The notes below the pieces were generated by a model. The model was not told the DNA's origin. It worked only from the letters and a program-made list of their open reading frames with translations, and made no database searches. From Candidatus Spongiisociaceae bacterium (lineage in GTDB: Bacteria > Actinomycetota > Acidimicrobiia > Spongiisociales > Spongiisociaceae), in contig OZ241841.1 of the NCBI GenBank assembly GCA_965202665.1, positions 1,536,001 through 1,600,000 of the forward strand: DNA of 64,000 nt. Direction: 5' to 3'. The translations under genes were made by a program, and so were the position numbers. Shown in pieces: positions 6,773 through 39,448 of this stretch; the stretch's first letter is position 1, and every line of letters begins with the position of its first letter.

Positions 6773-9124
6773 TTGGGTTCTACAACCAACCCGCACATCC
6801 GGGCCTGGCGCGCCCTCATCGGTTTAGCGGCGGCGACGCTGGCCGCGGCCCTGTTGCTGGGCATTGCTCCGGGCGCTCAGACGCAGGAAGGAGGAATTAC
6901 TCCCCCTCCCACTCCCGCATGCACCTCGGGCATCAGGCTGTCCGCCACGCCCGCCACCCTGTCCGAGGGGGCTTCCACCGTCTCCATTGTCATCACCGCC
7001 GGTTGGGTAAGCGGGACCGACACCACAGACCGGGCCGTAACATATACCATAGCCTTTCCCTCCGGGGTCACCACCTCCCCTACCACCCTCACCGGGACTG
7101 TGACTATCCCGATGAGCATGAGCAGTTCCTCCGCCGTTACCCACGCCACCCTCACCCTGACCGGCTTGGACAACACCGTGATAGATTCCGCTCGCAATGT
7201 AACCATCAGCGGGTCGGTGGCTGGCACTTCCATCAACGTCTGTGATGCTCTTATACCCATTACCGACAACGACAATACGGTAACTTTGGCCCTCAGCTCC
7301 GGCGGATCCGCTTTGTCGGAGGTAGATGAGGGGTCTTCCACGCAGGTAACGGTTACCGCTTCTTTGCCCTCGGGAACCACCGCTCCCACTTCCAACACCG
7401 ATTTGACTATCGCCGTGGGCGGGGATGCGAGTGATACCGCCGCGTCGGGGACGGATTTCACCGCGGTGACTGATTTTAATTTGCGCATTCCCGCCAACAT
7501 GTTGAGCGGAACGGCCAACTTCACCCTGGCTTCCCTCAACACGATTCCGTTTAGGGGCTCGAAGAGTTTGACCGTGTCCGGTTCATCTACCGGGTTCGTC
7601 GTTAACGGAGCGCAGTTGACTATTAACGATCAGACGACGGTGACTTTGTCGCTGCGTTCGGGGGGGTCCGCTTTGTCGTCGGTGGTGGAAGGTTCCACCA
7701 CTCAGGTTGCAGTTAGGGCTTCTTTGCCGTCGGGCGCCACCGTTTCCACCTCCGCCTCCGATTTGACTATTACGGTGGGCGGGGTTGCGGGTGATACCGC
7801 CGCGTCGGGGACGGATTTCACCGCCGTGACTCCTTTTACTTTGACTATTCCCGCTAACGCCTCGAGCGGAACGGCCAACTTCACCCTGGTTTCCGCCAAC
7901 ACTATTCCCACCGGGAGTTCGAAGAGGCTGACCGTGTCCAGTTCCACTACTGGAATTGACGTCACCGACGCCCAGTTGACTATCACCGCCCGTCCGGAAA
8001 CTCCTACCGAACCCACCGGACCCACCGAAACCGTTCCCCCCTCCCCCCCGCCTCCGCCTCCGTCTTCGTCCTCGTCTACCCGCAGGCCGCCGTCGCCCTC
8101 GTTGGATGAGGCGCAAACTTCCCTCACCCTGGCGGACACCTTGCCCGACTGGTCGGCCTGTCTGGGCCCGGCTAGGCGGTCTACCCGCTTTACCGACGTG
8201 GCGGACTGGGACGCCGACCCCGCCATTCGTTGCGCAACCTATTACCGGATCACCGTCGGCCGCACCCCCACGTTGTTCGCCCCCACCGAGGAGGTGCCCC
8301 GCTGGCAGATGGCCCTGTTCATGTACCGGGCGTTGGGACCGGCGGGAGTGGATACGCCGGCGGAGTCCGATCAGGGTTTCACCGACCTCGGCGGTTTGTC
8401 GGAGGAGGCCCGGAGCGCCGCCAACATGGTGGCCCAACTGGGGATCATGCCCGGTGCGGGGGAAGGGCGGTTTGACCCGCAGGGCCTGGTTTCCCGCCGT
8501 TCCATGGCCCTCATACTGCACGGTTTCATGCAAGCCGCCGTACTCCAAACGGGGGTGACGCTGGGAGGCGACTCGGCCGCCACCGGATTCACCGACCTGG
8601 CCGGGTTGTCGACGGCGGAGCGGCGGGCGGTGGGAAGCCTGTACGCCTTGGGCGTGGTTCGGGGGGCCGTCGCCGGTACGTTCGCCCCCGATGATACGGT
8701 CACCCGGGTGCAGATGGTGCGGGTGATCGCCCGGGCCTTGGCCTACACCATCGTCCGGCCGGCCGGGGTAAGCATGCAGGCCGACCGGGACACCGCCGTC
8801 GAACGGGCCGTGGATCTGGTGATTTCGGTGCGGGATGCGGACTTCCTGCCGATGCCGGGGGCCCGGGTGGATATCTTTTTCGCCCGCGACGCCGGGGATG
8901 CGTTCACAGACGCCGGACGTTGCGTGACCGGCCTGTTGTCCCCGTTGGCCGGTACGCAGGTTTGCCAAGTGGACCGGGGCGATCCGGCCGTCGGCCCGGT
9001 AGGGGATTTGCGGATGAGGATCACGGGGATCATCTCCGGTCAGCGGGTATGGGCGTGGAGCGGGACGGAGGGCGCCCGGGTAACCGACCTGGTCCGCTTC
9101 GCCCGCCTGATGTTCGTTCTGTAA
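6773..9124 (+). CDS. Secreted surface protein with Calx-beta/Ig-like repeats, a Pro/Ser linker and C-terminal SLH domains
   Basis: Signal peptide, two 120-aa TAASGTDFTAV repeats, and SLH-like motifs (FAPTEEVPRWQMA, FDPQGLVSRRSMA, FAPDDTVTRVQMV). Confidence 0.8.
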   Translation: MGSTTNPHIRAWRALIGLAAATLAAALLLGIAPGAQTQEGGITPPPTPACTSGIRLSATPATLSEGASTVSIVITAGWVSGTDTTDRAVTYTIAFPSGVTTSPTTLTGTVTIPMSMSSSSAVTHATLTLTGLDNTVIDSARNVTISGSVAGTSINVCDALIPITDNDNTVTLALSSGGSALSEVDEGSSTQVTVTASLPSGTTAPTSNTDLTIAVGGDASDTAASGTDFTAVTDFNLRIPANMLSGTANFTLASLNTIPFRGSKSLTVSGSSTGFVVNGAQLTINDQTTVTLSLRSGGSALSSVVEGSTTQVAVRASLPSGATVSTSASDLTITVGGVAGDTAASGTDFTAVTPFTLTIPANASSGTANFTLVSANTIPTGSSKRLTVSSSTTGIDVTDAQLTITARPETPTEPTGPTETVPPSPPPPPPSSSSSTRRPPSPSLDEAQTSLTLADTLPDWSACLGPARRSTRFTDVADWDADPAIRCATYYRITVGRTPTLFAPTEEVPRWQMALFMYRALGPAGVDTPAESDQGFTDLGGLSEEARSAANMVAQLGIMPGAGEGRFDPQGLVSRRSMALILHGFMQAAVLQTGVTLGGDSAATGFTDLAGLSTAERRAVGSLYALGVVRGAVAGTFAPDDTVTRVQMVRVIARALAYTIVRPAGVSMQADRDTAVERAVDLVISVRDADFLPMPGARVDIFFARDAGDAFTDAGRCVTGLLSPLAGTQVCQVDRGDPAVGPVGDLRMRITGIISGQRVWAWSGTEGARVTDLVRFARLMFVL
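7277..7987 (+). repeat. Intragenic tandem repeat, 2 x 360 bp
   Basis: Units start at 7277 and 7637 and share GATACCGCCGCGTCGGGGACGGATTTCACCGC and GAGCGGAACGGCCAACTTCACCCTGG. Confidence 0.9.
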
Positions 9125-9165
9125 CCGGGCCGGGCGGGGAAAAGGATTCGGCTAAACTGAGCCGG

Positions 9166-10083
9166 GTGGAAACCGACCGCCGACCGATTGATTACATCGC
9201 CCTGACCCGGGAGACCTACCATCTGCTGGGTTACCAGCCGTACCGATGGGCCCGCAACGAGGAGCCGCCGCCGCTGGCCCCGCTCCGCAAACCCCTGTCG
9301 GAATCCAAGCTGGGCCTTATCGCCTCCGGGGGGGTGTACCGGCATGGGCAGGTGGCTTTCACCCACCGCGACGACCTAACCCACCGGGAGGTGCCCGTCG
9401 ACGTGGACACATCCGAGTTGCGGGTTACCCATTTCGCCTTCGACCAGTCCAACGCCCGTTCCGATCCGAATGTCATTTTCCCGATCGACGGGTTGCGGGC
9501 CCTGGTCGCGGAAGGAACGATCGGGGGACTGACTTCGCACGCCCTGACTTTTATGGGCGGCATCTATTCGCAACGGCGCCTGCGGGAGCAGCTGATTCCC
9601 AAGCTGGCGGAGCGCGTCTTGCAGTTGGGGGCCGACGCGGTTTTGCTGGTTCCGGTGTGACCGGTGTGCCATCAGTCAGTTGGGCTGATCTGTCGTGAAA
9701 TTGAAGCCCGGGGGATACCCTCCCTGTCCATGACCAGCGCCTGGTCCATCACCGCCTCCGTCAATCCTCCCCGGGCCGCCTTCAACGATTTTCCGCTGGG
9801 ACACACCTGCGGTCCGCCCGGTCAACCGGCCCGCCAGGTCGCCATTCTGCGCCAAGCCCTGTCGGCGCTGGAGAAGATCGACCGGCCGGGGATGATCGTG
9901 GATTTGGAACAGAGGTGGGATGCGCCGTGGAAGGAGGAGGCCCGCCGCCCCGTCGACCACCGCACCCCCCGCTACGACACCCCCCAATATCAGAACCAGG
10001 CCGACGAGCGGGCGGCGGCGGCCGCCCACGGCCGGGAGGCGGCCTGCGGGGCCTGTCCCGTCCCGGCGGCGGCGCAGGCGTAG
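9166..10083 (+). CDS. Glycine/sarcosine/betaine/D-proline reductase selenoprotein B family protein (in-frame UGA read as Sec)
   Basis: ORFs 8920-9660 and 9664-10083 are in the same frame and join as LLVPV-U-PVCHQSVGLI...IEARGIPS (UxxC). GrdB/PrdB-like motifs KPLSESKLGLIASGGV and DPNVIFP. TAAACT -10 lies 7 nt before the GTG at 9166. Confidence 0.85.
9671..9689 (+). promoter_or_regulatory. Putative bacterial SECIS hairpin
   Basis: ATCAGTC-AGTTG-GGCTGAT stem-loop with GU in the loop, starting after a 10-nt gap from the UGA at 9658-9660. Confidence 0.65.
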
Positions 10084-10093
10084 GAGGGAGGCC

Positions 10094-10351
10094 GTGGCGG
10101 AGATCAAAATGTACACCGCCGACTGGTGCGGCTGGTGCCGCCGGGCGAAGCGGTTGCTGGCCCAGCACGGTTACGAAACCATCACCGAGGTGAACATCGA
10201 CGAATGGGATCCCGACCGGGGGAAACTGAAAGGCCTGACCGGCCAGGAAACCATTCCCCAGATTTTCATAGGGGAACGCTACGTGGGCGGTTATCCGGAG
10301 CTGGTGGACCTGATCAGGCGGAACGGACTCCACCCCCTCGCCCAGGCCTGA
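10094..10351 (+). CDS. Glutaredoxin (GrxC-like)
   Basis: MYTADWCGWC...TIPQIFIG..YVGG; RBS GGAGG upstream of the GTG. Confidence 0.88.
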   Translation: MAEIKMYTADWCGWCRRAKRLLAQHGYETITEVNIDEWDPDRGKLKGLTGQETIPQIFIGERYVGGYPELVDLIRRNGLHPLAQA

Positions 10352-10518
10352 CCGCCCCCGTCGTTCCGCCCTGCCGATTTTTCTCCGCGGCCCGGCCGCC
10401 CGATTGCCGGGCGGGCTAAAATGACTCTCCGCGTTTGGGGACTCTCCGGATTTAAGGGGGCCCCTTCCCCGACTTGGAATAATACCGACCATCGCGTCAG
10501 CCCCCGGAGGTGGGTTCC

Positions 10519-10923
10519 ATGGCCTCAATTGACAACATCGCCAACATGGGCAAAGACGAAGCCCGCGTTCTGCGCAAGAACGGAATCCGCACCACCTCCG
10601 TGCTGTTGCAACGGGCCGGCGACCGCTCCGGCCGCCGGCGCCTGGCCCGGGAAACCGGACTGTCCGGATCCGACCTGCTGGATTGGGCGCACCGGGCCGA
10701 CCTGATGCGCCTCCGGGAGCTGGGCCCTATTTATGCGGAACTGCTGGGCCGTTCCGGGGTGCGCACCCTCCGCGAACTGAGGCGCCGCAACCCGGCGGTG
10801 TTGCGGGCCATGATGTCCCAAGTCAACGAGCGGGACCGCCTGACGCAGCGCCTGCCGACCGAAAAGGCGGTGGAAGGCTGGGTGTTGGACGCCGCCGTCA
10901 CCGACCCGCTGGTGGCCAGCTGA
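10519..10923 (+). CDS. DUF4332-like helix-hairpin-helix protein
   Basis: W.HRADLMRL.ELG..YAELL...GV.TL.EL..RNP..L pattern. Confidence 0.7.
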   Translation: MASIDNIANMGKDEARVLRKNGIRTTSVLLQRAGDRSGRRRLARETGLSGSDLLDWAHRADLMRLRELGPIYAELLGRSGVRTLRELRRRNPAVLRAMMSQVNERDRLTQRLPTEKAVEGWVLDAAVTDPLVAS

Positions 10924-23603: not shown

Positions 23604-25382
23604 GTGCAACATCAGGCCCTTTATCGCAAATACCGTCCGCAACGATTCGACCAGGTGGTCGGCCAGGAGCACGTTACGCAAACCCTGTTGCGGGAAATCA
23701 CCGAAGGCCGGGTGGCCCACGCCTATCTGTTCGCCGGGCCGCGGGGCACCGGGAAAACCACCACCGCCCGCCTGTTGGCCAAAGCCCTCAACTGCCCGGA
23801 CCGTTCCCCGGCCGGCGAGCCGTGCGACGACTGCGACTCCTGCCGGGCGGTGACGGACTCCGTCTCCTTGGACGTAATCGAGCTGGACGCCGCCTCCCAC
23901 AACAAAGTGGAGGACATCAGAGAGCTGCGTTCCGGGGTGTCCACCGTGGCCTCGGTGGGCGGGGCGAAACGGGTGTTCATCCTGGACGAGGCGCACATGC
24001 TCACCAAAGCGGCGAGCAACGCCCTGTTGAAGACTTTGGAAGAACCCCCGGAGGGGGTGCATTTCGTGCTGGCCACCACCGAGCCGTACCGCCTGCTGGA
24101 CACCATCCGCTCCCGCAGCCAGCGGTTCGACTTCCACCTGGTTTCCATCGACCGGCTGGTCAAGCACTTGCAGGAGGTGTCCGACGCCGAAGGCTACCAG
24201 GCCGCCCCGGAGGGCCTGGCGGCGGTCGCCCGGCGGGCGGACGGTTCCGTACGGGACGCCTTGAGCCTGTTGGAGCAGGCGGCGGCCGCGGACGGAACCG
24301 TCACCGAAGAGGGGCTGTCGCGGGCTTTGGGCGCGGCCGGGCGGGAATCCTTCCCCGCCCTGGCGGAGGCGATGACCAACCAGGATGCGGGGGCGGTCCT
24401 GCGTTTGGTGTACGAGTTGGCCGGGCAGGGGGTAAACATGCGCCGGTTTGCGGCCGACGCCATAGAATTTTTTCGAGGAGTGTTCCTGGTCCAGTACGCC
24501 CCGGAGGCGGCCGGCGAGGCCGGGCATTTCCCGGAAGCGGCGGACGACTGGAAACAGGTGGCGGACGTTCTGCCCCCGGCGGCCGTGCGCCGGGCCATAG
24601 AACAGTTGGGGGAAGTGTTGGCGGCTTTGCGGGAAGGACGGGAGGAGCGGATAACGATGGAGTTGGCCCTGCTGAAACTCACCCGTCCCGAATTAGACGA
24701 TGATACGGCGGCTTTGCTGACCCGGATTGAGCGGTTGGAGCGGGGCCAACCCGCCTCCGTCCCCTCCGCCCCCGCCCGAACCGAACGGCCCCCGCCCACC
24801 GCCTCCCCTGCTAAAAAGGGGGCCGTCCCCGTCGCCGAGACGGCGGAGGCCGCCCCGCCGCCCGCCGTTCCCGCCCCGCAACCGAAAGCCCCGGCGGGCG
24901 AAGTGTCCTTGGAGGCTTTGGAGGGCGTTTGGCCGCAGTTGGTGGCTTCCGTCCGTGAGCAGAGCGTCCGCAAAGAGGCCCTCTTCCGGGATACCGTGGC
25001 CAGCCGGGTGGATGACGGCACCATTTTCCTGACCGCCCCCTCCGCTTTTTTTCTGAAAAGCCTGCAAGCAGACGAAGCGTTGCAAACTTTTCTGGCGGAG
25101 CGGGCCACCGCCCTGTTGGGGGCTGAAGCCCGGTTCGCTTTTGAGATAAACGAAGGGGATGCGCCCCCGCCGGCCGATTCTCCGCCCGTCCCGCCCCGCT
25201 CGTCGGATCCCGCTCCCGACCCGCCGTCCCCGCCCGACGCTCCCCCGACGCAGTCATCGGACCCGGTTTCCGACACGCCCGATACCCCGCCCGTCCCGCC
25301 GGAACCCGACTCCCCCTCGTCCAAGCCTCTTACCTTTGATCAGGTGACCGAAGAGTTCAGGGCCAAAGTAATAGAGCCTTGA
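23604..25382 (+). CDS. dnaX: DNA polymerase III subunit gamma/tau
   Basis: ALYRKYRPQ, GPRGTGKT, the CxxC zinc module, DEAHML, LLKTLEEPP. Confidence 0.95.
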   Translation: MQHQALYRKYRPQRFDQVVGQEHVTQTLLREITEGRVAHAYLFAGPRGTGKTTTARLLAKALNCPDRSPAGEPCDDCDSCRAVTDSVSLDVIELDAASHNKVEDIRELRSGVSTVASVGGAKRVFILDEAHMLTKAASNALLKTLEEPPEGVHFVLATTEPYRLLDTIRSRSQRFDFHLVSIDRLVKHLQEVSDAEGYQAAPEGLAAVARRADGSVRDALSLLEQAAAADGTVTEEGLSRALGAAGRESFPALAEAMTNQDAGAVLRLVYELAGQGVNMRRFAADAIEFFRGVFLVQYAPEAAGEAGHFPEAADDWKQVADVLPPAAVRRAIEQLGEVLAALREGREERITMELALLKLTRPELDDDTAALLTRIERLERGQPASVPSAPARTERPPPTASPAKKGAVPVAETAEAAPPPAVPAPQPKAPAGEVSLEALEGVWPQLVASVREQSVRKEALFRDTVASRVDDGTIFLTAPSAFFLKSLQADEALQTFLAERATALLGAEARFAFEINEGDAPPPADSPPVPPRSSDPAPDPPSPPDAPPTQSSDPVSDTPDTPPVPPEPDSPSSKPLTFDQVTEEFRAKVIEP

Positions 25383-38557: not shown

Positions 38558-39448
38558 ATGGCAGTCCGACAAGTTTCCGAAATCTTCGATCCCTCCGCCT
38601 GGCGGGAAGTGGAAGGGTTCGAGCTCGCCGACCTCACCTACCACCGGGCGACGGGGCAGGGAACGGTGCGCATCGCCTTCGACCGGCCGGAGGTGCGCAA
38701 CGCCTTCCGCCCGCAAACGGTGGACGAGTTGATCGCCGCCCTGCAACACGCCTACCAGCAAGCCGATGTGGGGGTGGTGCTGCTCACCGGCAACGGCCCC
38801 TCCCCCAAGGACGGGGGGTGGGCTTTCTGCTCCGGCGGCGACCAGCGCATCCGGGGCGCCGACGGCTACCAGTACCAGGACGGGTCCGCCGGCCCCGGCC
38901 GCCTGCATGTGATGGAAGCCCAGCGGCTCATCCGGTTTATGCCGAAGGTGGTAATAGCGGTGGTGCCCGGTTGGGCGGTGGGCGGCGGACACAGCCTGCA
39001 CGTGGTGTGCGATTTGACTTTGGCCTCCCGCCAGCACGCCGTTTTCAAACAGACCGACGCCGACGTGGCCAGTTTCGACGCCGGATACGGTTCCGCCTAC
39101 CTGACCCGGCAGATCGGCCAGAAGCGGGCCCGGGAAATCTTCTTTCGGGGGGCGGACCATTCGGCGGAGGAGGCGCACCGGATGGGGATGGTCAACGCGG
39201 TGGCGGAGCACGCCGATTTGGAAACCACCGCTTTGGAGTGGGCCCGGGAAATAAACAGCAAAAGCCCGATGTCCATCCGCATGTTGAAATACGCCTTCAA
39301 TCTCATCGACGACGGGTTGGTCGGCCAGCAGCTGTTCGCAGCCGAAGCCACCCGCCTGGGCTACATGACCGATGAAGCCCGGGAAGGCCGCGACGCCTTT
39401 GTGGAAAAACGGCCCCGGGATTTCACCCGTTTCCCCTGGCATTACTGA
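38558..39448 (+). CDS. menB: 1,4-dihydroxy-2-naphthoyl-CoA synthase
   Basis: VRNAFRPQT, FCSGGDQ, GGGHSLHVVCDLT. Confidence 0.95.
   Translation: MAVRQVSEIFDPSAWREVEGFELADLTYHRATGQGTVRIAFDRPEVRNAFRPQTVDELIAALQHAYQQADVGVVLLTGNGPSPKDGGWAFCSGGDQRIRGADGYQYQDGSAGPGRLHVMEAQRLIRFMPKVVIAVVPGWAVGGGHSLHVVCDLTLASRQHAVFKQTDADVASFDAGYGSAYLTRQIGQKRAREIFFRGADHSAEEAHRMGMVNAVAEHADLETTALEWAREINSKSPMSIRMLKYAFNLIDDGLVGQQLFAAEATRLGYMTDEAREGRDAFVEKRPRDFTRFPWHY

Follow-up and report, generated by a model that had tools for sequence, protein, structure and literature searches.

A predicted PrdB-like selenoprotein without a detected PrdA partner, followed by an optional glutaredoxin, in a Candidatus Spongiisociaceae bacterium

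The present study concerns a PrdB-like gene in a 64,000-nucleotide stretch of bacterial DNA (the window), in which an in-frame TGA almost certainly encodes selenocysteine (Sec), as judged from sequence comparisons. No gene for a Stickland-type partner subunit was found in its genome. We tentatively propose, giving the whole chain somewhat less than an even chance, that the product is a stand-alone Sec reductase of a small molecule, which would work without PrdA and be recycled through its own C-terminal CxxC, a glutaredoxin and thioredoxin reductase (TrxR). The protein family has been known as a selenoprotein family since 2005, and the locus adds one member to it. Coordinates are collected in Table 1.

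The sole break in the 305-codon frame is the TGA at codon 165, in the context LLVPV-U-PVCHQSVG. The initial annotation had described this TGA as in frame with family-like sequence on both sides, and indeed the TIGR04483 PrdB profile runs across it, from residue 35 to residue 247 (153.7 bits, cut-off 300). The Pfam GRDB profile (PF07355) matches the protein at 32.6 bits (cut-off 22). Contigs from 4 runs of 4 studies, one possibly close to the source, show no alternative letter at the three TGA positions; past the TGA, third codon positions of the 305-codon frame account for 9 of the 12 strain variants. No RNA data set was listed among those containing the sequence. The promoter scan detected no full sigma-70 consensus upstream of the gene; TANNNT lies 5-8 nt before the chosen start in 23/27 family loci, and the -10-like box suggests that the gene has its own promoter and yields a leaderless transcript.

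The four genes to which the initial annotation had pointed are all present in the source genome, a single contig that is 94% complete: selA, selB and selD score above cut-offs, and a tRNA-Sec (selC) was found. Furthermore, selA and the selenoprotein gene are each carried by 26 of 28 family genomes. The searches of 61 genomes include one genome of another family (G043), on which the family-level counts do not depend. The aligned codon is TGA in 30/30 loci from the family-genome search. Among the best 80 of 578 confirmed GTDB stretches, a set overlapping with those 30, TGA stands at the site 79 times and TAG once; the best 80 of 185 metagenome stretches give TGA 78 times and TGC twice. It had been predicted that ordinary annotation would split such a gene, and 82 of the 120 listed homologous proteins (334 in total) end exactly before the Sec site. 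The other listed proteins carry Cys (32), Thr (5) or Trp (1, presumably a translation artefact). The motif variant T-P-V-C occurs in five proteins at two places on the tree (P0004, P0016, P0017, P0019, P0023), and U-P-V-D in two metagenome loci (L200, L202) that retain the tail CxxC.

The Blastococcus tunisiensis orthologue (L096:5989-6906) shares the SECIS core but carries TAG in place of the Sec TGA, and the tRNA-Sec anticodon of that genome is CUA (L112:1501-1592). Codon and anticodon have shifted in step, as would be expected for Sec but not for a stop. UAG-encoded Sec has been published for the bacterial family of Blastococcus, for which the accessible part of the paper lists only FDH, UGSC and AhpC as proteins (PMC5330540).

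The hairpin that had been proposed as a SECIS element finds support in conservation and covariation but not in its folding energy, which is not unusual (z +0.07, +0.41, -0.45 and +0.65). Six stem pairs are kept in 99-103 of 103 distinct sequences, drawn from 185 stop-coded loci, and the seventh in 85. One pair changes on both sides (U-A in 58 and C-G in 23 of the 103), which 0 of 5000 shuffles reached, the shuffling ignoring relatedness. The stem is broken in both Cys-coded loci. Only 5 of 109 conserved four- or six-fold degenerate columns have an invariant codon across 27 family genes, 4 of these 5 lying after the TGA; the rare codons TCA and GTT, which form stem and loop, are identical in 27/27. 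Of the 58,367 TGA triplets in the source genome, 8 are followed at 16-18 nt by an AGUUG loop on a stem with 5 or more pairs; this pattern was defined after the PrdB-like site had been viewed, so that support comes solely from the other matches. A 7-pair stem is found in four cases, namely the PrdB-like gene and three TlpA-like thioredoxin-fold WUxxC genes, and a fifth case is a UGAC-motif gene.

The three WUxxC genes, which are lipoprotein-like and have the AGUUG loop, form a cluster outside the window (G000:C1:2363555, 2364871 and 2365983) and are likely to be unannotated selenoproteins. Other predicted Sec sites outside the window lie in the UGAC-motif gene (G000:C1:839283), which we take to be of a UGSC-like family, in a gene resembling formate dehydrogenase, whose loop is GGUCU (2010235), and in SelD (1360373). 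A coding-score scan for selenoproteins was noisy and missed the PrdB-like gene itself.

Table 1. Features of the selenoprotein locus, in positions of the window
Feature	Position	Strand	Details
PrdB-like selenoprotein gene	9166..10083	+	GTG start 9166, TAG stop 10081-10083; 305 aa with TGA read as Sec
In-frame TGA, predicted Sec165	9658..9660	+	Codon conserved as a stop in relatives; TAG with tRNA-Sec(CUA) in Blastococcus
Cys168 (of U-P-V-C), putative resolving thiol	9667..9669	+	Invariant in the family alignment; Asp in 2 of the best 80 metagenome loci
Predicted SECIS hairpin	9671..9689	+	Stem 9671-9677/9683-9689 (7 bp), loop AGUUG 9678-9682, 17 nt after UGA
C-terminal CxxC (Cys294/Cys297, CGAC), predicted electron relay	10045..10056	+	In a low-confidence, likely mobile tail; from tail counts and model
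Predicted -10 promoter box TAAACT	9153..9158	+	7 nt upstream of the start codon; inferred
Purine-rich, ribosome-binding-like stretch	10082..10091	+	Over the upstream stop; inferred from sequence
Glutaredoxin-family gene, optional neighbour	10094..10351	+	85 aa, CGWC, PF00462; starts 10 nt past the TAG

By its PF07355 match and UxxC, the gene appears to be a member of the 'Proline reductase PrdB' family (pfam07355) of the marine surveys, with which it also shares the occurrence of Sec and Cys forms and non-clostridial hosts. The Sargasso Sea survey counted 42 'PrdB' UxxC selenoproteins against a single GrdA (PMC1088965), and the GOS survey 235 Sec and 110 Cys forms (PMC2398784). In their accessible text, the two papers treat the family as proline reductase and make no mention of a missing PrdA, a C-terminal CxxC or a glutaredoxin neighbour. 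PrdB is likewise treated only as proline reductase in the accessible parts of PMC13188914, PMC9312934, PMC1794560 and bioRxiv 10.1101/2022.07.06.499078, while that of a further preprint shows that Actinomarina uses Sec but does not name PrdB (bioRxiv 10.64898/2026.04.03.716425). Within the literature covered, mostly open-access main text, we found nothing on the substrate of the PrdA-less family, on its C-terminal CxxC or on a TAG-coded member; supplements may already list the latter two.

The clostridial PrdB of Terrisporobacter mayombei (TEMA_RS20095) is 35% identical to the locus protein over 221 aa, with Sec aligned and a UxxC. In contrast to PrdB, the locus protein has about 30 extra N-terminal and about 50 extra C-terminal residues and falls short of the TIGR04483 cut-off. 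Besides, a true prdB adjoins prdA and prdC, whereas the genome of the locus has no prdA or prdH. GrdB, GrdF and GrdH have the Pfam GRDB match in common with it, but only over profile positions 218-345 of 347; the locus protein has 305 aa against about 430 and lacks UxxCxxC, and no GrdA or GrdE was found. Its scores against the NCBIfam models TIGR01917, TIGR01918, NF040794 and NF040795 are 44-51 bits, all under cut-off. The assignment to a GrdB/PrdB family in the initial annotation thus holds for PF07355, UxxC and the alignment of Sec with PrdB, but not at the level of the PrdB and GrdB equivalogs. In other words, the protein is PrdB-like at its Sec centre, yet neither PrdB nor GrdB by the models and features compared. 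Two alphaproteobacterial proteins annotated as 'glycine/sarcosine/betaine reductase selenoprotein B family protein' (WP_207415257.1, WP_035710215.1) resemble it in length (about 300 aa), share about 36% identity and have no reductase partners in their annotated surroundings; unlike the locus gene, they are annotated uninterrupted and form a separate, more distant subfamily.

The AlphaFold model of the protein has a mean pLDDT of 93.6 and places residue 165 between a strand (158-162) and a helix (166-181). Both terminal extensions are ordered in the model, with the end of low confidence from residue 291 (block means 75 and 44), and in the family alignment they contain the invariant non-motif residues Y18, G22, Y26, W251, W255, R269 and D280. 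No solved relative was found by sequence at E<=1 (one chance match at E 1.9). By fold there was no clear relative either: the best Foldseek match had E 8.5e-4 with TM 0.29, and the best VIA match, with Z 8.3 and an rmsd of 3.4 over 137 aligned positions, belonged to a group of LacI- and SDR-type folds. These comparisons barely covered the extensions and are not evidence of a new fold.

The C-terminal CxxC is present in 60 of the best 80 GTDB loci. In the tree set it occurs in 66/91 stop-coded versus 0/37 full-length Cys/Thr rows, a count that leaves out three distant tail-less rows, and among metagenome genes in 32/72 complete stop-coded versus 0/2 Cys genes (6 incomplete ones left out). It spans Actinomycetota, Myxococcota, Binatota and Pseudomonadota, and its state changes 12 times on a quick tree. 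Co-evolution of Sec and tail was not significant, with two supported independent pairs (sign test, p 0.5). Since the motif is missing in 25/91 and 40/72 complete stop-coded genes, it is not essential. Tail and glutaredoxin do not go together across genera: in g2 the tail is present but the glutaredoxin is not, and g4 has the glutaredoxin but no exact CxxC. A search for long fusions of 609-2000 aa, which is a weak test, found none among 7997 candidates. Distant Cys-type relatives from at least two sequence groups (P0137, P0139, P0141, P0273) are fused to AMP-binding acyl-CoA ligase domains, which gives a thin hint of CoA-activated substrates.

D-proline reductase binds its substrate through the pyruvoyl group, and the PrdB Sec then attacks the alpha carbon of the bound D-proline; the U151C form of PrdB has no activity (PMC11229817). 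The alignment of the two Sec positions supports PrdB-like chemistry in our protein. Without PrdA, however, activation of an amine by the pyruvoyl route is impossible for a stand-alone enzyme. Furthermore, natural Cys and Thr forms persist although U151C of PrdB is inactive, which argues for an easier chemistry than C-N cleavage. In the scheme that we tentatively favor, SelB would read the hairpin and Sec be inserted at the UGA. The selenolate of Sec165, at the N-terminal end of helix 166-181 in the predicted alpha/beta core, would attack the substrate at an electrophilic atom. If PrdB is a guide, the most likely target is a carbon that bears a good leaving group (C-N+, C-S+ or C-halogen) and can react without pyruvoyl activation. 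PrdB lacks the N- and C-terminal extensions, which may here take over from PrdA in completing the substrate pocket. Cys168 would release the product, leaving an Se-S bond, the oxidation would be passed to the mobile Cys294/Cys297 tail, and glutaredoxin or thioredoxin, fed by TrxR and NADPH, would re-reduce the tail.

A close rival, unlikely on the whole but to be taken seriously, is that the gene encodes a thiol oxidoreductase with a housekeeping role, whose substrates would be peroxides, sulfoxides or mixed disulfides and not a carbon-heteroatom bond. Such a role would suit a gene that is kept in 26/28 family genomes without pathway context and has a glutaredoxin neighbour, as well as the natural Cys (32) and T-x-x-C (5) forms among the 120 listed of 334 homologues, TxxC being a peroxiredoxin-type motif. 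The Sargasso survey, as far as its Table 3 goes, also places the family among thiol-dependent redox selenoproteins (PMC1088965). Fold and sequence are, however, PrdB-like and not thioredoxin-like, the many invariant positions outside the motif point to a specific pocket, and the genome has other predicted Sec proteins with a thioredoxin fold.

As the initial annotation stated, a CGWC glutaredoxin gene follows at a spacing of 10 nt. It matches PF00462 at 60.4 bits (cut-off 22.9, E 2e-16) and is the sole PF00462 match in the genome; against TIGR02181 (glutathione-dependent Grx3) it reaches 72.5 bits, under the cut-off of 90. The ribosome-binding-like stretch before it suggests that the two genes are co-translated. 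The glutaredoxin adjoins the selenoprotein gene in 6/27 family loci, and among 29 family genomes the query finds it only in these same 6 genomes, from 3 genera, always directly behind the gene; the other 21 of the 27 family genomes with the selenoprotein gene show no match to it. Of the best 80 GTDB loci, 3 have a glutaredoxin adjacent on the same strand and another 6 have one on the opposite strand, at most 6 kb away; in 4 Binatia loci a convergent glutaredoxin is 0.4-1.4 kb away. No glutaredoxin was found near the gene in the best 80 metagenome loci; in 51 of them the sequence extends 400 nt or more past the gene. The source genome gave no GshB, no PF04262 (E. coli-type GshA) and no glutathione-reductase motif, the reductase being searched by motif only, and the MshC search gave a CysRS-level match only; a GCS2-family ligase and an adjacent TrxR-TrxA pair are present. 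Considering these searches and the TrxR-TrxA pair, it is more likely that the glutaredoxin is reduced by TrxR or by an imported thiol.

The initial annotation had inferred a stand-alone Sec/Grx module. Its stand-alone part agrees with the absence of any detected partner, and the two genes are linked wherever the CGWC glutaredoxin is present in the family, but within the family the pairing extends to only 6 of 27 loci, and neither GshB nor a glutathione-reductase motif was found. Accordingly, a dedicated two-gene module with the glutaredoxin as obligate reductant is quite improbable, even though the close spacing with its ribosome-binding-like stretch, the uniqueness of the PF00462 match, the Binatia loci and the survival of the pair here while menB lies 28 kb off all speak for it; most family genomes that hold the gene show no such pair, and none was found in the best 80 metagenome loci. 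The glutaredoxin is thus likely an optional recycler. Genera g2, g4 and g7 have a TGA-containing glutaredoxin-like gene of about 90 codons with the motif T-P-T-U-Q-E-C-C (L206-L209), which was not found in the source genome; most family genomes without the CGWC glutaredoxin carry it, giving a roughly complementary distribution.

The usual gene downstream of the selenoprotein gene in the family is menB. In the window, menB lies at 38558-39448 (+), 28 kb from the selenoprotein gene, which indicates a rearrangement. In other clades the neighbours are unrelated (rlmG, pntB, serA, an F420-dependent LLM oxidoreductase, leucyl aminopeptidase). As a clue to the substrate the neighbourhood was rejected, because 767 called neighbours from 161 loci formed clade-specific clusters only, with a crude gene caller and 13 cluster representatives scanned. 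In one locus group (L080, L094, L157 and related loci), mostly without the tail CxxC, the gene is preceded, at a distance of about 13 nt, by one for a TIGR03617 F420-dependent LLM oxidoreductase, possibly another electron source. Directly upstream in the window, positions 6773-9124 (+) encode a secreted protein of 783 aa, rich in Thr and Ser, that has repeated beta domains followed by SLH domains at the C-terminus and shows no apparent functional link; past the glutaredoxin, 10510-10923 (+) encode a DUF4332 helix-hairpin-helix protein. A tRNA-like element with a TTA anticodon ('tRNA-Stop'), reported by ARAGORN at about 24765-24846 (-) (G000:C1:1560765-1560846), is probably spurious.

The initial annotation had seen no grdA, grdE or prdA nearby, and none was found genome-wide. 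Profiles PF09338 (PrdA/GrdE) and PF04723 (GrdA) gave zero matches in the source genome, while as positive controls they matched 21/28 and 11/17 family genomes, respectively. Queries with PrdA, PrdD, PrdE, PrdH and GrdE gave no match in the genome or in any of 190 loci, again with positive controls. Matches to the PrdC query were weak (26-28% identity) and were not accepted as PrdC. Six family genomes carry the selenoprotein gene without any PF09338 match. GrdE-type genes occur in most sponge-associated family genomes and GrdA in many, none being found in the genus of the window; those genomes likely hold glycine/betaine-reductase-type systems. We therefore regard it as very unlikely that the protein serves as a subunit in a Stickland-type reductase of proline, glycine or betaine, with its partner encoded elsewhere or too diverged for recognition. 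The frequency of GrdE-type and GrdA genes in the family and the 94% completeness of the genome leave some room for such a subunit; however, where a GrdB-like paralogue was detected, it is the paralogue that adjoins those grdE genes, neither the 190 loci nor the single-contig genome yielded a partner, and the NCBIfam equivalog cut-offs are missed. Weakest of all is the view that the TGA really ends translation (in a pseudogene or between two genes), is an error of sequencing or is read through as Trp. It could appeal to the energetics of the hairpin and to the one database homologue with W, but is extremely improbable against the conserved stop codon, the Cys forms, the SECIS covariation, the Sec machinery, the TAG/tRNA-Sec(CUA) pair and the third-position bias of downstream variants in the same frame.

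At present, gene callers split members of this family, and some databases label them D-proline reductase in genomes without PrdA. The locus offers a compact test set, comprising the enzyme, an adjacent glutaredoxin and TrxR with no Stickland partner found, for a very widespread orphan selenoenzyme. The C-terminal CxxC provides a specific mutational hypothesis, and the TAG-coded orthologue sits in a cultured Blastococcus. More speculatively, and with a low probability for the statement as a whole, the abundant marine 'proline reductase' family may be a self-sufficient selenoenzyme with a different substrate, in which the extensions would replace PrdA and a Sec-only tail CxxC would relay electrons from a swappable redoxin. 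Such an enzyme, in hosts that range from soil bacteria to those of sponges, would cleave an activated carbon-heteroatom bond, possibly one in a halogenated compound or a CoA-activated one.
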